DNA from: a virus
Taxonomy: Duplodnaviria; Caudoviricetes
Virus record (IMG/VR): IMGVR_UViG_3300017903_002400
Coordinates: 1-38,783 of that record
Strand: one strand, 5' to 3'
Length of the DNA: 38,783 nt
The notes beneath the pieces were generated by a model, which did not search any database, was not told where the DNA came from, and was given only the letters and a program-made list of their open reading frames with translations. The translations under genes were made by a program, and so were the position numbers. Position 1 is the first letter of the stretch; each line of letters begins with the position of its first letter. Shown in pieces: positions 2,480 through 36,026 of this stretch.

Positions 2480-2605
2480 ATGGATCAAACCACCCTCAAC
2501 AACTGGCGTCGAATTAAAGAGGCGCTGGAACGCGAAGGGAAAACCGACTCTTATTTTTATAAGCGTGCGATAGCAATTCTTGCTGGCAGGCCAGATCCGC
2601 TTTAA
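2480..2605 (+). CDS. Small hypothetical protein (41 aa, MDQTTLNNWRRIKEALEREGKTDSYFYKRA...), absent from the ORF track
   Basis: Translated by hand; ATG directly follows the upstream stop; W..IK.ALE..GKTDS.FYKRA recalled from cyanophage proteins. Confidence 0.75.
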   Translation: MDQTTLNNWRRIKEALEREGKTDSYFYKRAIAILAGRPDPL

Positions 2606-2631
2606 GGTGGCAGCGGTTTCACTTTTTTCAA

Positions 2632-2988
2632 ATGATTAAGCCTGTTGTTGCTGCAAGTGTCGTTGCACTAGCTGGCGCACCTGCTATGGCCGGAGGTCTG
2701 GATGGTCTGTATGTGAATCCTGAGTACAACGCAGGATTTTCTGGATCTTCGTTCGCAGGAAGTTCGCTAGAGCTTCACGTTGGTTATGAGGAAGGCCCTT
2801 TTTACATTCAGGCAGGCCCTGCACTTGCTAACGATGGAAGCGATTCTGAATGGGGTTTTTCCGGCAAAGCTGGCGTGTCGGCACCTGTGAATGAAAAGCT
2901 CGACCTCTACACCGAACTGAGCTACGCGAAGTTCAAGGACGTCGACGCTGGTTACGGAATCAAGCTGGGCTCTAAATATCGCTTTTGA
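2632..2988 (+). CDS. Small outer-membrane beta-barrel-like protein
   Basis: Signal peptide ending APAMA, alternating amphipathic Gly/aromatic-rich beta strands, C-terminal Y-x-F motif. Confidence 0.75.
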   Translation: MIKPVVAASVVALAGAPAMAGGLDGLYVNPEYNAGFSGSSFAGSSLELHVGYEEGPFYIQAGPALANDGSDSEWGFSGKAGVSAPVNEKLDLYTELSYAKFKDVDAGYGIKLGSKYRF

Positions 2989-3001
2989 GATTGAAAAGGG
3001 A

Positions 3002-3175
3002 TTGAACTACGCCTACGAATTTTTTCGTGTGGTCGTAGTTCCATGCCTGCATCCGTCAAATTGGCGTTATTGCTTCCCATTGACTTGGCTGGTTCCGTAC
3101 ATGTATGAGCTGCGTGATTACTACATGCAAGCGCCATACGCTAAAGAACGGGACTACTTGCTGGGGATTGATTAA
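3002..3175 (+). CDS. Hypothetical aromatic-rich protein (57 aa, TTG start)
   Basis: Open frame LNYAYEFFRVVVVPCLHPSNWRYCFP...GID fills the gap between the OMP gene and the terminator. Confidence 0.5.
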   Translation: MNYAYEFFRVVVVPCLHPSNWRYCFPLTWLVPYMYELRDYYMQAPYAKERDYLLGID

Positions 3176-3183
3176 CCTGACAT

Positions 3184-3219
3184 AAGCCCTTCTTTTCCTC
3201 ACACGGGAAGGGTTTTTTT
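3184..3219 (+). terminator. Intrinsic terminator whose loop contains UCCUCACAC
   Basis: Stem aagcccttc/gaagggttt running into a T7 tract. Confidence 0.8.
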
Positions 3220-3252
3220 ATTGCATATAAGGGTGAATGATCGTAACGGAAG

Positions 3253-7050: not shown

Positions 7051-7321
7051 GACTTTTGACTGGATGGCGGCGGAACTCCCCTTAGAGGAGCAATTAACTG
7101 TAGAGAATCAAATTAGAGCAATTTCGGAGCAATGTGATACCGAGACTATTAAAGATCTGTGCAAGTCACTATTGCAGCAAAACCATCATTACGCTCTGCT
7201 GCTTCGTAACGCCACAAAGCACATCATCGAACTAGAGCTTGCGGCCGAAGATGCAAAATTACTCGAACCGGTTGAGCCCGTCAGACGTCCGTGGTGGCGT
7301 GTGATCTTGCGCCGCAATTAG
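7049..7321 (+). CDS. Hypothetical helical protein (90 aa)
   Basis: MTFDWM...LEEQL; ends in RRPWW; -10-like TATCCT at 7023. Confidence 0.7.
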   Translation: MTFDWMAAELPLEEQLTVENQIRAISEQCDTETIKDLCKSLLQQNHHYALLLRNATKHIIELELAAEDAKLLEPVEPVRRPWWRVILRRN

Positions 7322-8188
7322 TCGCAGCTTCTTTAATGCACGGTTCTTAATTTGCCTGGTGCGCTCGCGACAGATGCCCAGTTCTGCACCGATGTGCGCT
7401 AGCGGCATTCCTTTTGTTCCTGAGTAATACCGCGTAAGCACGTCGTATTCACGTTCTGTCAGCTTGTTGATGGCACGACCGAGCTTCTCTTCTTCTTCTG
7501 ACTTGATGACGTGGCTAACAACGTCGGAATCTTTGGACGTGTCGGCAATTTGATTCATCAACGGCGATCCGTCTTCATGACACAGCGCATCAAGGCTGCG
7601 GGTTGGTGTTGAACGCTCGAACCACATCATCAGCTCTTCAGGCTTGCGTTCGACGTGATCCGCCATTTCTTGCAGTGATGGAGCCCTGCCGTTCAGCTGA
7701 TGGAATTGATTGCTCCACGTTGCCAGCCGGTTGATGTTTTCGATCGTGTTGGTCGGTATGCGAATCATCCGGCTGTGATGGTCGATAGACCGTGAAATGC
7801 TTTGCCGAATCCACCAATAGGCATACGTCGAAAACTTGTAGCCACGGGTGCCGTCGAACTTTTCTGTAGCGCGTGCAAGACCAATGCAGCCCTCTTGGCA
7901 CAGGTCAGCAAGTTCTAGCCCCGTACCTTGAATGCGGTTGGCGTACTTGCGGGCAAGGCTCACAACTAATCGCAGGTTGCTGTTGATTAGTTGTTGCCGC
8001 GCACGTTCACCAGATCGAATGACACGCTTCTCTGCCGTCGTCAAAGGTGGCGGGTCGGTTATTTCTTTGCGTTGCTCGTCAAGTTCTTGCCATGCAACGA
8101 TTCGCCTTGACAGTTCGATTTCTTGGTCAGCGGTAAGCAGCGGAAACTTACCAATGTTGTCTAGATAAAACTTGAATGAATCAGTCAC
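7259..8188 (-). CDS. RNA polymerase sigma-70 family factor (RpoD/SigA-like, lacking region 1.1)
   Basis: YL..IGKFPLLTA.QEI (1.2), NLRLVVS.ARKY (2.1), DL.QEG.IGL.RA.EKFD..RGYKFSTYAYWWIRQ (2.2-2.4), RER.RQI..RALKKLR (4.2). Confidence 0.95.
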   Translation of the reverse strand: MTDSFKFYLDNIGKFPLLTADQEIELSRRIVAWQELDEQRKEITDPPPLTTAEKRVIRSGERARQQLINSNLRLVVSLARKYANRIQGTGLELADLCQEGCIGLARATEKFDGTRGYKFSTYAYWWIRQSISRSIDHHSRMIRIPTNTIENINRLATWSNQFHQLNGRAPSLQEMADHVERKPEELMMWFERSTPTRSLDALCHEDGSPLMNQIADTSKDSDVVSHVIKSEEEEKLGRAINKLTEREYDVLTRYYSGTKGMPLAHIGAELGICRERTRQIKNRALKKLRLIAAQDHTPPRTSDGLNRFE

Positions 8189-17494: not shown

Positions 17495-17839
17495 ATGCTC
17501 GAAGGCGCTGATTTGCTCGCAAAATGTCGCGAGGGTTCGCATCTGTCTAAGTCTGACTTGGTGCGTGCTTGTGGTTATGTTGCCGAGCGTCCTGATGGAG
17601 AAGGTGAGCGCATCAAGTTCACCGAGTTTTATGAAGCCTTGCTCGCTGCAAAAGGTCTTGTCCTGAAGACTGAAAAGCGGATGGGTCGCAAGCTGACGCA
17701 TCAGACCAAGATCCAAAAAGATGGCAAGCTGCTAATTGGCAGCGCATATGTCAACGAACTGGGTCTGGAACCTGGCGCGAAGTTTGACATTAAGGTGGGT
17801 CGCAACAGCGTCGTTCTGACTGCTGCAAACGCTGAGTAA
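17495..17839 (+). CDS. abrB: Cyanobacterial AbrB-like (cyAbrB) transcription regulator
   Basis: L.G.DLL.K..E...SKSDLVRACGY...FT.FYEALL.AKG...GRKL...G.LLIGSAY...LGLEPG..F.IK.GR. Confidence 0.85.
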   Translation: MLEGADLLAKCREGSHLSKSDLVRACGYVAERPDGEGERIKFTEFYEALLAAKGLVLKTEKRMGRKLTHQTKIQKDGKLLIGSAYVNELGLEPGAKFDIKVGRNSVVLTAANAE

Positions 17840-29776: not shown

Positions 29777-30513
29777 CGACAACACCTGATGCAGTCGAAA
29801 GGGAACTACATTCCCTTGAACCGTCAGCAATCATTGAGCTGTTTGAGCTGCATTTGACTGAAGCGGTGAATGGTGTGGATTTGGTGTATTACTATCACGC
29901 TGGAACGAATGAGTTGTCGCAAGACATTGTGTTCGATGGCGTCACATATTCAGCCGTACCGATTGAAGTAGATGGTTTTGCAGTGACGACGAAAGGCACA
30001 CTGCCTCGTCCCAGCATGAAGATTGCAAATGCGGATGGTGCGATTACTTCTCTTCTTAACAGTTACAACCCACTTCAGGCTGAAGTACGCCGAATCCGTA
30101 CTTGCAAGAAGTTTCTAGATGCTGTTAATTTTTCAAGCGGTACAAACCCGACGGCAGATCCCACCGCACTCTTCAACGGTGGCTATGAATCCTGGTACAT
30201 CGACCGCGTTGCAACGGAAAACCTAGAACTCGTTGAGTTTGAGCTAATTGGCAAGCTCGACTTAACCAATTTGCGTTTGCCCGGACGGCAAGTTGTAGAG
30301 CATTGCCCTTGGATTTACAAAGGCAACCAATGCAACTACAACCCAGGGAAATATTTTAATCTTGACAATGAGGAAGTGACAGACGCTGCAGAGGACCAGT
30401 GCGCCAAAAATCTAAGAGCCTGTGAACTGCGTTTTATAAAAGGTGAAGGCATTGGAGACAATAACGACCTGTTGCCGTTTGGAGGATTCCCAGGTGCGCG
30501 ACTTCAGGTCTGA
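29773..30513 (+). CDS. Minor tail protein (lambda gpL-like)
   Basis: IELFEL, PIE.DGF, G.LPRP, KFLDAVNF; C-terminal four Cys and LPFGGFPG. Confidence 0.92.
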   Translation: MTTTPDAVERELHSLEPSAIIELFELHLTEAVNGVDLVYYYHAGTNELSQDIVFDGVTYSAVPIEVDGFAVTTKGTLPRPSMKIANADGAITSLLNSYNPLQAEVRRIRTCKKFLDAVNFSSGTNPTADPTALFNGGYESWYIDRVATENLELVEFELIGKLDLTNLRLPGRQVVEHCPWIYKGNQCNYNPGKYFNLDNEEVTDAAEDQCAKNLRACELRFIKGEGIGDNNDLLPFGGFPGARLQV

Positions 30514-30802
30514 TGCAGAACAGCACGCCCAGTCGTCTGGAGATGTTGAGTCATGCGGTCTTGTGGTTGACGGTATTTTCTGGCCTTGCCGGAATATCGC
30601 TGATGATCCTTGTGCTGACTTTGCCATTGACCCAAGAGACTATGCAGCGGCAGCATTCCGTGGAACGATTGAAGCGATAGTGCATTCGCACCCAAAAGGC
30701 GGGCCAGCCAGTGAAGCTGATAAGCGTGCTTGCACTGGAACAGGTTTGCCGTGGCATATTTGGAGCGTGCCAGACAGACAATGGTTGACTATCGAGCCCT
30801 GA
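30494..30802 (+). CDS. JAB/MPN domain protein (N-terminal half of lambda gpK)
   Basis: ESCGLV, CRNIA, HSHP....S..D, PWHI; GTG start re-called. Confidence 0.85.
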   Translation: MRDFRSDAEQHAQSSGDVESCGLVVDGIFWPCRNIADDPCADFAIDPRDYAAAAFRGTIEAIVHSHPKGGPASEADKRACTGTGLPWHIWSVPDRQWLTIEP

Positions 30803-31173
30803 TCGGCAGGCAATGGCAATACGGCAAGTTTGATTGCTTTACGTTGATTCGCGATTGGTTTGGCTTGCAAGGGATTGAGTTGCCTGATTTTGAGCGCCCC
30901 GCTGATCTGCAAACTTGCGAAAGCATCTTCCTAAAACAGGCATTGGCTATCGGGTTTGAAGAGGTTGCTTATGCAAACAGGCGTCCTGGGGATGTGTTGA
31001 TTATGCGCCTTGGAACGGCAACACCGATGCACGCGGCAATTTTGTTAGCTGATGAGCGGATTCTGCATCAGCGTCAGGATTCACTAAGTGCGGTGGAACC
31101 TTTTGGGCGATACTATGTCTCTAGAGTCGCGGCGGTCTTTCGGTATGCAGCAGACCGTAAGGTTGCTGGATGA
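30781..31173 (+). CDS. NlpC/P60 domain protein (C-terminal half of lambda gpK)
   Basis: LIGR.W.YG.FDCF.LIRD, PGDV, HAAI, ILHQ; start re-called at ATG 30781. Confidence 0.85.
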   Translation: MVDYRALIGRQWQYGKFDCFTLIRDWFGLQGIELPDFERPADLQTCESIFLKQALAIGFEEVAYANRRPGDVLIMRLGTATPMHAAILLADERILHQRQDSLSAVEPFGRYYVSRVAAVFRYAADRKVAG

Positions 31174-32460: not shown

Positions 32461-34545
32461 ATGGGACTTAACTCTGAATCCGTTATTAAAATTGTTGACC
32501 TTCTTTGCGAGGGTCCGATTGATGGCATTGAAGGCGGCCGAAAAGGCGTTTTTCTAGACGAAACAGCTTTAAAATCTAAAAACGGCGGCAATCTTGTAAG
32601 CCCAGACAAGGTCGATTACGAGTTAAGAGAAGGGAGCCGTACGCAAAATTATTTGCCACAAGCAAAAGGCAAAACATTTAATGTCGTCAACGTCGGCAAA
32701 GAGGTCGGCACCAATTACGAGGAGAAGTTGAATAGTGAAGGCACACTAGTTAAAAAACGTAACTATGGTGCAGGCGAGCAGGTTGTGCAGATTACGGACA
32801 CTGAGGTTGACAGTATTGATTTAATTTTTACTATTCCGCGTTTGTTTTCTACGGCGCAAGAAGGTCTTGTGAAAGGGCAGTTGTTTGATGCAGTAATCTT
32901 TTTTGATGTTTTAATTCAAGATCAAGGAAAGGGCAGTGCATTCGAAAAAGTTAAAAAATCAAGCTTCAACAGTGTAAGCGAAGATTTTAAGTCAAACGGC
33001 AAAGATCTCTTTTTTATAGAAGGCATAAGCACCACAAATTATCAATATAAAATAGGTGGCATTAAGCTAGAGGGCAAAGGCCCTTGGAACGTAAAAGTAA
33101 GAAAATACCCTGGGAAAAAATATCAAGGCTTCATCGCACACAAAGCAGACAAAGCGGAAGAGATTGATGGTGAGATTTTTAGGGCTGATTTTGGAGAATT
33201 TGAAGATGTCCCCAAACGAACACCCCTAAAGGATGGCCGAGCAAATACCCTTATTTGGTCAGCAATCGTTGAAAAATTCAACGTTAGATCAGCCTATCCA
33301 TTTTCTGCATGTGTAGGCATGAACATCTCAACGGAAGAGTTTCCAAATCTTCCAACGAGATCGTATCTGGTTCGCGGCAGAAAAGTTCGCGTGCCAGAGA
33401 ATGCAGTGCCAAGAGATGATGGCAGCCTTGAGTTTAACGGCAGCTTTGATGGCAGTCTTGGTGAAGCTGTTTGGACGACTTGTCCTGTTTCAATTTTCTT
33501 TGATTTACTTACGAACGAACGTTATGGGGCGGGTCATTTTATCGACGAAGACAATTTGAGTTGGGTGGACCTTTATCCCTTGGCGCGGTATGCAAACGAG
33601 CTTATTGATGGTGAGCCGCGTTTTGCCTGCAACGTCCATGTGTCATCTCAAGCTGAGGCCTTCACTGTTCTGCAGGACTTCGCCAGTGTTTTTAGGGGCA
33701 TGATGTATTGGCAGTCAAACATCATTCAGGTGACTGCAGACCACGGCAATCTTGATGGCTCGGACATTAACCCTGTTCATATTTTTTCAAACTCTAACGT
33801 CATTGATGGCGTATTCAATTACAGCGGATCTTCGCTAAAGACGCGCAGCACTAGCATCAAAGTTCGATATAGCGATCCAGAAAATTTCTACAAACCGAAT
33901 ATTGTTTGTATTGAAGACTCAAGCCTGATTGAAAAATACGGCTACCAAACCAAAGAAGTGCTTGCTTTTGGGTGTACCTCTAAAAAACAAGCCAAGCGGC
34001 TTGGACGTTGGATGATGAAATCAGAAGAGCTTGATGCAAACACGGTGACGTTTGCTGTCGGCCTTGATGGCGCTCTTGTGTTTCCTGGGCAGGTGTTTGC
34101 GATTCAAGATGAGTTGCGTGCCGGTGTGCGCTTATCTGGACGGATCTCTGGTACGTCTACGGACTTTGATGACAACACGACGATTATTGCCGATCAAGAG
34201 ATAGAGCTACCTACTGGAGACAATCGCACTTTGACTTGTGTTTTGACTGATGGTGGTATTGAAAGCAAGCCAATCGACGCATTGAACAGTTCTAATGCGC
34301 TTGTGGTGGTTACGGAAGCGTTTAGCAGTGAGCCGCTCCAAAACTCTATTTATTCAATCAGTGCTGACAATGTAAAGGAGCAAAAGTTTCGCTGCCTGTC
34401 AGTTGCGGACAATGGTGATGGGACGTTTGCTGTTGTTGCCGTTGAATTCAACGATAGCGTTTACGCAGCTGCCGACGAAGATGAAGAGCTAGTGTTTGAG
34501 GCCGTTACTACTCTTGATGAGCAGCCCCCTGTGCCTTTGATCTGA
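32461..34545 (+). CDS. Tail tip / host-specificity protein J, N-terminal part
   Basis: DLLCEGPI.G, FLDET, P.RSY.VRG.KV.VP, WT..P....DLLTNERYG.G, EPRF.CN, GCTS..QA.R.GRW. Confidence 0.92.
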   Translation: MGLNSESVIKIVDLLCEGPIDGIEGGRKGVFLDETALKSKNGGNLVSPDKVDYELREGSRTQNYLPQAKGKTFNVVNVGKEVGTNYEEKLNSEGTLVKKRNYGAGEQVVQITDTEVDSIDLIFTIPRLFSTAQEGLVKGQLFDAVIFFDVLIQDQGKGSAFEKVKKSSFNSVSEDFKSNGKDLFFIEGISTTNYQYKIGGIKLEGKGPWNVKVRKYPGKKYQGFIAHKADKAEEIDGEIFRADFGEFEDVPKRTPLKDGRANTLIWSAIVEKFNVRSAYPFSACVGMNISTEEFPNLPTRSYLVRGRKVRVPENAVPRDDGSLEFNGSFDGSLGEAVWTTCPVSIFFDLLTNERYGAGHFIDEDNLSWVDLYPLARYANELIDGEPRFACNVHVSSQAEAFTVLQDFASVFRGMMYWQSNIIQVTADHGNLDGSDINPVHIFSNSNVIDGVFNYSGSSLKTRSTSIKVRYSDPENFYKPNIVCIEDSSLIEKYGYQTKEVLAFGCTSKKQAKRLGRWMMKSEELDANTVTFAVGLDGALVFPGQVFAIQDELRAGVRLSGRISGTSTDFDDNTTIIADQEIELPTGDNRTLTCVLTDGGIESKPIDALNSSNALVVVTEAFSSEPLQNSIYSISADNVKEQKFRCLSVADNGDGTFAVVAVEFNDSVYAAADEDEELVFEAVTTLDEQPPVPLI

Positions 34546-36026
34546 TGCCAATCGAATTTCAGCTAATTTCAAAGGATGGCGGTTTGACAAATCGCGCCAT
34601 AGCCACTTGGTCACGCGGTGACGAAGGTTTCACTGCTGCTTTCGACGTAAAGCATCGAGTTGGCAAGGGTAGCTATACCCGAATCTTGAACACTACTGAC
34701 ACGTCTCTTACGGTAGAAGGCATTAAGCCTGGCAAGACCTTTGAGGTACAGGTCAGAGCTGTAAGCACTGGTTTCCCTCCTAGAAAATCTCCTTACGCTA
34801 TAGCCACCGGCATTGCGCCTGCATTGCCTAAAAACATTGCTGGCAGCACGAATCAAAATCTTGAACAAGCTGTAAGTAATGTCTCAAATTTAAGAATAAA
34901 AGCATTGAGTAGTGCTCAAGCTGTTCTTGAGTGGAAACCTCCAACAAACGAAAAGCTTAACAACGTAACAGCAGTTGTTAAACACTCAAACAAAACAGAT
35001 GGCACAGGATCTTTTGCAAACAGTGTAAAACTTGCTGAAGTCCCAGGCAACGCTAATAGTGTTGTCGTGCCATTGCTCAATGGTCAATATATTGTCAAGC
35101 TGAGGGATGACACTACCAACAATAAAAGCTCTGACGAAAAGAGCGTAACCCTAAACATTCCAGACCTTGAAGTAGGCAAGCTTGTTCACAACAGGCGTGA
35201 AGACCAGGACAGCCCTCCTTTTCAGGGCCTTCAGCGTTTTGTTTTCTACAGCTCAGACAATGACGCATTGGTTATTGACACCGACGCTTTGCTTGACGAG
35301 CTTGGAACATTTGATGACATCGGTGATTTTGACTTTGCTTCAATTAGGCGTTTCTTTGGAACGTATGAGTTTAAAGATCCAGTTGACCTTGGAGGCAAAT
35401 TTAACGTAAAACTAGAGCGCATCCTTGAAACTCGTGGCGACTATCCTAAGGATTCAGTAGACGATCGAGCTGATCTGGTTGACACATGGTCCGATTGGGA
35501 CGGACTCGTTCCAGATGACACATCCGCCATCGTTTATTTCCGAACCACTGATAACGCAGAGGTTGATGAAAGGATATTGCTAGAAAACGACGACGGTTTT
35601 GATCTTGAAGATGGCGACAGCCTGATTCAAGAGTCAACAAATACATTCAATGATTGGACGGTTCTAGACAAGGGCACGTTTGTAGGCAGAACGTTCCAGT
35701 TCAAGGCAGAGCTTGAAACAGGCCATGTTGACCAAACGCCTTTAGTTGATCAGCTGGGTTACAAAATCACAATTCCAGGGCGCACCGAAAACAGCGGCGT
35801 GCTCACCTCTAATGCTGGCTCCACCAAAGATATATCGTTTACAAATGCCTTTTATGAAACGCCTGCTATTTCAATCTTGGCGTACAACCTAGGCAGTGGC
35901 GACTACTATGAGGTGACAAGCACCAGTCGCACAGGCTTTACAATCGCCTTCAAGAACTCCAGCAACACGATCGTGGAAAAACAGTTCTTGTATGTTGCAA
36001 CAGGCTACGGGGCGGAGGTGAGCTAG
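34545..36026 (+). CDS. Tail tip protein J, C-terminal part (FN3-like domains), encoded as a separate ORF
   Basis: W...F.V...Y...VEG.KPG..FEVQVRAV FN3 pattern; GRTFQFK; TGATG-coupled. Confidence 0.8.
   Translation: MPIEFQLISKDGGLTNRAIATWSRGDEGFTAAFDVKHRVGKGSYTRILNTTDTSLTVEGIKPGKTFEVQVRAVSTGFPPRKSPYAIATGIAPALPKNIAGSTNQNLEQAVSNVSNLRIKALSSAQAVLEWKPPTNEKLNNVTAVVKHSNKTDGTGSFANSVKLAEVPGNANSVVVPLLNGQYIVKLRDDTTNNKSSDEKSVTLNIPDLEVGKLVHNRREDQDSPPFQGLQRFVFYSSDNDALVIDTDALLDELGTFDDIGDFDFASIRRFFGTYEFKDPVDLGGKFNVKLERILETRGDYPKDSVDDRADLVDTWSDWDGLVPDDTSAIVYFRTTDNAEVDERILLENDDGFDLEDGDSLIQESTNTFNDWTVLDKGTFVGRTFQFKAELETGHVDQTPLVDQLGYKITIPGRTENSGVLTSNAGSTKDISFTNAFYETPAISILAYNLGSGDYYEVTSTSRTGFTIAFKNSSNTIVEKQFLYVATGYGAEVS

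Follow-up and report, generated by a model that had tools for sequence, protein, structure and literature searches.

The question raised by this locus is whether a cyanophage carries, behind the gene for its outer-membrane protein (OMP), a small RNA that copies the porin-repressing seed of the cyanobacterial RNA Yfr1, or merely a terminator whose loop resembles that seed. A first-pass annotation had pointed to such a loop at the end of the OMP unit and had proposed that it could silence host porins. Here we ask whether the loop is conserved in other phages, whether it could be made as an RNA of its own, what it could pair with and which other functions might account for it.

The phage and its outer-membrane protein

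The window, i.e. the whole stretch of DNA that was analysed, covers a complete virus record (38,783 bases) bounded by direct terminal repeats. Its genes make up a lambda-like siphovirus set (terminase, portal, major head, tape measure and minor tail proteins, and the central fibre J), to which an Erf/exonuclease VIII/RusA module and a replication initiator are added. For the major head protein, identity is 77% to KBS-S-2A, 72% to S-H1 and 64% to MED4-184 and MED4-117, and the nearest relative of the sigma factor (7259-8188) is that of KBS-S-2A; KBS-S-2A and S-H1 are both phages on Synechococcus WH7803. The window is a complete, 38.8-kb cyanosiphovirus of the KBS-S-2A-like type and, since its head protein and sigma factor are closest to the KBS-S-2A group, we infer a picocyanobacterial host. 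Neither the tyrosine integrase (PF00589) nor the large serine recombinase (PF07508) was found in any of 22 records, comprising the window and 21 related ones, so the domain content does not indicate classical lysogenic conversion. Elsewhere in this genome, an AbrB-like regulator (17495-17839; PF14250, E 4.5e-19) is encoded between the terminase and portal genes. Further downstream, two adjoining ORFs (30443-31173) both match the minor tail protein phrog_30, and the central fibre J (694 aa) has behind it an ORF of 493 aa that contains fn3 (together 32461-36026); either arrangement may represent a natural split or frameshift.

The unit under consideration sits just behind the tail-fibre genes and all of its parts that had been named earlier were recovered at their places (Table 1).

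Table 1. Parts of the OMP-hairpin unit, in window positions
Feature	Position	Strand	Basis
Predicted -10 box TAAGGT of the OMP gene	2603..2608	+	Conserved TAnnnT upstream of the OMP ATG; predicted
Predicted OMP transcript start, giving a 17-nt pyrimidine-rich leader	G2615	+	Predicted
Phage outer-membrane protein, 118 aa	2632..2988	+	PF24653, phrog_417
57-aa ORF, optional insert between the OMP and the RNA unit, start codon uncertain	3002..3175	+	phrog_703
TAACCT, predicted -10 box of the small RNA; shares bases with the stop codon that ends the 57-aa ORF	3173..3178	+	Predicted
Predicted 35-nt small RNA, one hairpin serving as seed carrier and intrinsic terminator	3185..3219	+	Fold, terminator scan
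Seed loop UUCCUCACAC	3195..3204	+	Conservation, predicted opening cost of 0.33 kcal/mol, som-leader duplexes
Family core CUCACAC within the seed loop	3198-3204	+	
U tract of the intrinsic terminator	3213..3219	+	Sequence, terminator scan

The gene described earlier as encoding a signal-peptide beta-barrel-like protein specifies a full-length member of the Phage_OMP family (PF24653, E 6.6e-27, 94.6 bits against a cut-off of 27) with an N-terminal signal-like helix and a C-terminal Phe, but its AlphaFold model (pLDDT 84) shows only six beta-strands, i.e. a half barrel. The best structural matches of the model are parts of 8-stranded OMP barrels (Z about 10), and a Foldseek search with it gave no match at E 0.001. 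A six-stranded incomplete barrel, common to the window's OMP, is also what a preprint describes for this family (PF24653/IPR056410/DUF680), with a 12-stranded dimer predicted; the preprint further discusses receptor interference, citing the blocking of LamB by lambda Lom, and its main text is free of the terms 'sRNA' and 'small RNA' (bioRxiv 10.64898/2026.10.24.761521). In a tblastn search the OMP matched 385 phage records, all but four of which are named Synechococcus, Cyanophage or Prochlorococcus, the four exceptions being uncultured or marine entries.

A search for a host copy of the small OMP gave none with a first alignment; a second alignment yielded 12 genome matches, mostly non-cyanobacterial MAGs, and the hairpin element was absent from all 10 of these with a readable 3' end. 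Seven host-family genomes encode beta-barrel proteins of about 260 aa composed of two tandem Phage_OMP-like repeats (L363, L364, L366, L367, L368, L372, L374, L375), an architecture that would fit a 12-stranded dimer of the OMP. Related to them are His/acid-rich proteins of 320 aa (L361, L362, L365, L369, L370). Several of the tandem-repeat genes are followed by an ORF that, as we take it, starts like a CobW-type GTPase, and this neighbour hints at a role in metal uptake.

Conservation of the hairpin and its predicted promoter

Nine of the 11 bases of the Yfr1 motif are matched by the window's loop, as had been noted, and a single 9-mer of this kind is, as had also been conceded, at chance level: TCCTCACAC occurs exactly once in the window. 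We therefore turn to comparative counts. Window-type OMP loci were gathered from IMG/VR and metagenomes (181 with a stop codon, four of which were dropped for flanks of <70 nt, leaving 113 distinct flanks), and 87 myo/podovirus-type OMP loci, with 81 distinct flanks, served as the comparison set; both sets consist of the best 80 matches of each search. Among the matches listed, CTCACAC is present no more than 260 nt after the OMP stop in 92 of the 113 distinct window-type loci as against none of the 81 distinct loci sampled from myo/podovirus-type members of PF24653. It is the top 7-mer behind the stop in window-type loci; the remainder of their sequence, 280,570 nt in all, contains it just eight times, which amounts to 0.007 expected copies per 260 nt. 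These counts remove the doubt attached to the 9-mer, and the intergenic, loop-exposed position next to an OMP gene, on which the first-pass annotation had rested its case, is a real signal that goes far beyond chance. The seed is carried by 31 of 38 OMP protein clusters defined at 90% identity and by seven of nine at 70%. Among the 21 loci without the exact 7-mer, three have flanks that end too early and about ten carry one-base variants, while in the remainder the seed has been lost or is absent.

The association also emerges when the OMP is ignored. A scan of IMG/VR for seed plus terminator (TCCTCACAC, 1-14 nt, GGGNTTTTT) returned 71 matches, 49 of them within 210 nt downstream of an OMP gene on the same strand; the strong hairpins away from OMP genes stand behind unrelated-looking ORFs. 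Seventeen of the 49 had new flanks, with OMPs 36-56% identical to that of the window, and seven of these 17 OMPs group with myo/podovirus-type proteins (all OMP trees being quick trees on 100 columns). A major head protein was detectable in 14 of 21 carrier records, at 31 to 99% identity to that of the window. The same search of 201 genomes from the host family detected no such single-hairpin form. Second copies of CCTCACAC in related genomes were rejected as chance occurrences, lying in open reading frames and being without a terminator. Both the OMP and the hairpin are absent from the cultured phages KBS-S-2A, S-H1, MED4-184 and MED4-117, so the module as a whole is dispensable; a blastn search with two versions of it found no match among 50,697 phage records.

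One locus (L331) has a window-type hairpin, a promoter box and an insert of ~200 nt behind an OMP that groups with the myo/podovirus-type proteins, which suggests that the OMP gene was exchanged and the RNA unit stayed. In two pairs of loci (L009 versus L148 and L008 versus L010) the OMPs are identical over the aligned region and the seed is the same, while the RNA layouts differ, the seed being placed in a terminator loop or in a separate seed hairpin. The 57-aa ORF is present in the window as annotated and matches phrog_703 (E 1.1e-10), but proves to be a dispensable insert found in 18 of the 113 loci; it has no match in Pfam or the Atlas, and a locus search with it confirmed none. Its frame (2990-3175) stays open somewhat further 5' than the TTG, by a few codons; in several relatives this position holds GTG or other codons, and translation may truly begin close to 2990.

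In the window the predicted stem spans 3184-3214 and closes the annotated terminator loop with a folding energy of -12.2 kcal/mol; the z-score of the fold is -2.8 for the 37-mer 3184-3220, -1.7 for a 50-mer and -0.5 for an 86-mer. The predicted unpaired probability of the seed has a mean of 0.89 and is at least 0.7 in 70 of 76 distinct contexts. A script placed the seed in the terminator loop in 63 of these 76, including the window; of the remaining 13, two were likewise recognised by eye as terminator loops, and in the others the seed lies in a small hairpin on the 5' side or in a linker, with a separate terminator following. The 38 terminator-class hairpins chosen for comparison have 32 distinct stems, in which C-G, U-A, G-C and A-U pairs interchange at the same level. 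When their arms were swapped the folds averaged -13.6 kcal/mol as against -19.0 kcal/mol for the native ones, and the own 3' arm was the best partner for 11 of the 38 5' arms and among the top three for 19. Alignment of the downstream regions of relatives, a check proposed at the outset, hence returns a kept loop on varying stems, with a covariation that is real but not sharp. A conserved, exposed 7-mer on stems that are free to vary has the look of a pairing RNA, as far as folding predictions go.

A further element, new to this analysis, stands before the hairpin: a TAnnnT box that is conserved and has a purine at +7. It precedes the hairpin in 81 of the 92 motif loci (one of the 81 being a false assignment), with the purine in 74 of the 81, and it starts 2-3 nt past the OMP stop in 73 of the 95 loci without the insert, against a background of 0.0067 per position. 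The middle bases vary (TAGTCT, TAACTT, TAGCCT, TACACT, TAGAGT and others). Of the 11 exceptions, nine show TATAAC in the corresponding position, where +7 coincides with, or adjoins, the first base of the seed hairpin or of the seed. When the 57-aa insert is present, the box keeps its place before the hairpin and not its distance from the OMP stop. In a held-out test the box with a purine at +7 was present in 17 of 17 new loci, as opposed to two of 81 myo/podovirus-type stops. In the window, +7 counted from TAACCT is A3185, the first base of the hairpin. In sigma-70-type promoters, TAnnnT is the -10 box, with the start about 7 nt further on. The positional conservation of the box together with the purine at +7 makes it likely that the small RNA has its own promoter directly before the hairpin, and processing from the mRNA is then unneeded; the predicted RNAs of the family are 32-75 nt long. 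The proposal of an sRNA derived from the 3' end of the OMP message is thereby retained for its conserved exposed loop and probably to be revised as to origin. The conserved box would agree with the kind of 3'-end sRNA whose promoter stands at the end of the upstream gene and which shares that gene's terminator.

A comparable box, which had been marked as -10-like in the window, precedes the start codon of the OMP by 13-50 nt in 100 of 105 related loci, in 70 of them at exactly -35 and in each with a purine at +7; the TAA of the window's copy also ends a 41-aa ORF. No -35 box was recognised, and a scan with the sigma-70 consensus called neither a promoter at the hairpin nor the box at 2603-2608. 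The single RNA data set recovered, a metatranscriptome with a word share of 0.06, contributed one 225-nt contig at 2472-2692, which leaves the hairpin uncovered and is uninformative.

Predicted pairing with som porin leaders and competing explanations

The seed loop is complementary to the ribosome-binding site of the host som porins, GTGTGAGGA(A). A som start pattern applied to 50 host loci recognised 22 starts; in 19 of these GTGTGAG precedes the ATG by 5-13 nt. With the GTGTGAGG site of these 19 leaders the window's loop is predicted to form 8-10 bp at -12.8 to -15.7 kcal/mol, energies that ignore the strain of pairing a closed loop of 7-10 nt. One Prochlorococcus genome adds three more som starts with the GTGTGAG site, and in five single-contig host genomes GTGTGAGG stands before the ATG in 13 of 18 som genes (coordinates compared by eye). 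Examination of 30 of 65 matches to the host pattern identified four som starts, four other putative ORFs and otherwise implausible starts. The seed itself occurs in the 3' UTR of one of 29 host som genes. In the 420 nt ending at the phage OMP stop GTGTGAG is found in none of the 113 loci and, the target site being absent, the phage's OMP message would escape. A precedent comes from Yfr1, which uses the same motif to pair with two som leaders at their ribosome-binding site and represses them 3.0- and 2.7-fold (PMC2796815).

We therefore favour, with a probability of roughly 0.63, the reading that the conserved hairpin with its complement to the som ribosome-binding site, likely made as an RNA from its own promoter, would pair with som messages and block their translation in the manner of Yfr1. 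The phage RNA would be transcribed from its predicted promoter, its seed CUCACAC would meet the ribosome-binding site of the som mRNA in the cell, and translation would be blocked as it is by the host's own RNA. The earlier interpretation is thus partly supported: it had named host porins and, as an alternative, Yfr2-type RNAs as targets, and the complementarity agrees with the former while the flanking bases favour som mRNAs over the latter. The three outcomes named at the outset as speaking against it that can be looked for in sequence were not encountered.

It is improbable, in our estimate, that the phage RNA instead acts as a sponge for the 5' GUGAGGAG head of host Yfr2 (Cyano-1), thereby freeing Yfr1 and Yfr10, with a net effect on porins that would be indirect and in the same direction. 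Yfr2 binds the same motif more strongly than does the mRNA target ppa (PMC6778093), a host has 2-5 Cyano-1 copies, and the Rfam consensus of the Yfr2 head is GUGUGUGAGGAG. Yet GTGTGAG is present in only six of 17 host Cyano-1 heads, and the C at -3 that would extend the pairing with Yfr2 in just seven of 76 phage contexts. The phage flanks follow som, with C at +7, A at +8 and rarely C at -3: the som-type flank TCCTCACACC is found in 38 of the 113 phage loci and the Yfr2-type flank CTCCTCAC in six. Likewise, the best perfect match averages 11.1 nt for som as against 9.3 nt for Yfr2, the som set being the larger (19 versus 6). As the flanks lie partly in stems and the loci are related, this preference for som over Yfr2 is to be taken as moderate evidence.

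Slightly less probable again is a role in cis, whereby a host RNA or a protein such as PatR would dock onto the loop, as the 3' end of the OMP mRNA, and set the stability of the message, no separate RNA being made. The hairpin is indeed the terminator of the OMP unit in most loci, its linkage to the OMP gene is strict, and PatR binds Yfr1, 3' UTRs and terminators in Nostoc (PMC11797042). A cis site, however, has no need of a TAnnnT at a fixed place whose +7 purine is the first base of the hairpin in several layouts, nor of a box that stays with the hairpin rather than with the OMP stop when the 57-aa insert intervenes.

We regard as unlikely, more so than either of these, that the hairpin is a decoy resembling the anticodon arm of host tRNA-Val(CAC), which would draw off an anticodon nuclease or anti-tRNA-Val RNAs. 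In the host, the arm consists of a 5-bp stem and a UUCACAC loop. A 5-bp stem closing a 7-nt CUCACAC loop is possible in the window and nine relatives, a subgroup that resembles the arm as the family at large does not; the window's 12-mer pairs as well with the arm's antisense (-17.9 kcal/mol) as with som leaders (-16.8 kcal/mol). This geometry is, however, possible in only 10 of 76 contexts, the predicted loop is exactly the 7-mer in none of 38, and som leaders pair more strongly than the tRNA-Val antisense in 62 of the 76. The host loop begins with U and the phage loop with C: TTCACAC is found in two of the 113 loci and CCTTCACAC in none, compared with 92 for CTCACAC. A tRNA decoy would also leave the OMP linkage unexplained. 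On these comparisons the phage loop fits the som leaders better than it fits Yfr2 or a role as a tRNA-Val mimic.

The notion of an ordinary terminator whose loop is shared by descent alone, without a selected function, can draw on the relatedness of the loci (in a first tree two large groups each occupy one side of a branch) and on the loss of the motif in several of them, but is largely refuted and very improbable given that stems, loop sizes and layout change while the seven bases stay, that identical OMPs are followed by different layouts with the same seed, and that the unit is kept behind OMPs grouping with myovirus-type proteins.

Relation to known RNAs and a possible role

The favoured som-pairing RNA shares with Yfr1 (RF01116) the nine motif bases, a predicted single-stranded seed complementary to the som ribosome-binding site, the predicted pairing there and its small size. 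The two differ in setting, Yfr1 being chromosomal between guaB and trxA (PMC2190773) and the phage RNA being phage-encoded and linked to an OMP gene. They differ too in architecture: Yfr1 presents the motif in an unpaired linker of 16-20 nt between two hairpins, an arrangement that is absent from the window, whereas the phage seed mostly sits in a terminator loop. The full Yfr1 undecanucleotide ACUCCUCACAC occurs in two of the 113 phage loci, the window having UUCCUCACAC in its place. The Rfam models of Yfr1 and Yfr10 (RF02362) found no match in the window (E 5), in 17 phage loci at the gathering score or in 12 chosen loci (E 10), while the same models score host copies at 55-68 bits for Yfr1 and 51.7 bits for Yfr10; nor did Rfam as a whole give a real match in the window or the phage loci.

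Yfr10 and Yfr10-like RNAs have the same seed and a variable structure (PMC2518516, PMC6778093). A minority of phage variants with two hairpins (L050, L085, L169) resemble the Yfr10 layout, which the window does not, and the phage RNA differs from Yfr10 in its shorter core and in not being next to Yfr2 genes. By prediction, then, it works like Yfr1 and Yfr10, but by Rfam or motif it is a member of neither. In one Synechococcus locus (L357) a ACTCCTCACAC unit with a terminator is divergent from a Cyano-1 (Yfr2-type) gene and has no Rfam Yfr10 match; it is probably an uncatalogued Yfr10-like RNA.

The closest precedent, by analogy, is IpeX of the E. coli prophage DLP12, an sRNA that is likewise tied to a phage porin gene and lowers a host porin, OmpC; as reviewed, it is 167 nt long, is processed from the porin transcript and does not act solely by complementarity (PMC12197685). 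The phage RNA described here is distinguished by its predicted own promoter, by the predicted use of a perfect seed copied from a host sRNA family and by an origin in phages in which no integrase was found. The available part of the same review mentions, for cyanophages, only an antisense RNA and cis-type motifs (PMC12197685). No report of a phage-encoded Yfr1-type RNA was found in the literature searched, with subscription journals mostly outside it. We consider the hairpin real and conserved, and the putative phage sRNA family that it defines probably undescribed.

As to purpose, the phage may exchange porins, making its half-barrel OMP while throttling the most abundant porins of the host; this is a weaker proposition than the repression itself. 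Throttling would free outer-membrane assembly capacity and remodel the surface, and it may also lower the adsorption of competing or sibling phages. That a widespread group of marine cyanosiphoviruses has captured the seed of Yfr1, nearly universal in the hosts, in a minimal RNA, and that this RNA and a half-barrel OMP constitute a two-part porin-replacing module, which excludes other phages or rewires nutrient entry in infected Synechococcus, is a tentative and rather doubtful extension of the som-pairing reading. A translation block would not quickly remove porins already in place during a lytic cycle and, since porin turnover may be too slow for receptor removal, relief of outer-membrane assembly would be at least as likely a purpose as exclusion. 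No paper among the literature matches listed names som porins as cyanophage receptors. With host Yfr1 already abundant (PMC6778093), the gain from a phage copy is questionable, and host Yfr2/Cyano-1 RNAs, which have a related complementary head, could neutralise the phage RNA.

If the favoured reading is correct, a virus would be mimicking a host sRNA, a very common, uncharacterised cyanophage OMP family would receive its first functional context, and one could test whether, in the main picocyanobacteria of the ocean, the som porins are important as phage receptors or because they compete for outer-membrane assembly. Few trans-acting phage sRNAs have a clear host target; this candidate is directly testable, having a predicted start, a 7-nt seed and a target site validated for host Yfr1, with an established E. 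coli reporter. The two-part module, if real, would bring such mimicry into the three-way circuit of Yfr1, Yfr2 and porins and would point to the som porins as cyanophage receptors.

Upstream of OMP genes in other phages, two further elements were noted. Four myovirus loci (L024:~480-531, L026:~480-531, L029:~475-525, L030:~480-531) share a leader element upstream of the OMP start that contains a TTTCATC...CGGGTAA...CCGCAAGTAAA-like sequence; it has no Rfam match at the gathering score and is a candidate cis-regulatory RNA. In the podovirus P-SSP6 a Glutamine-II riboswitch (L027:406-461) lies just upstream of the OMP gene region.
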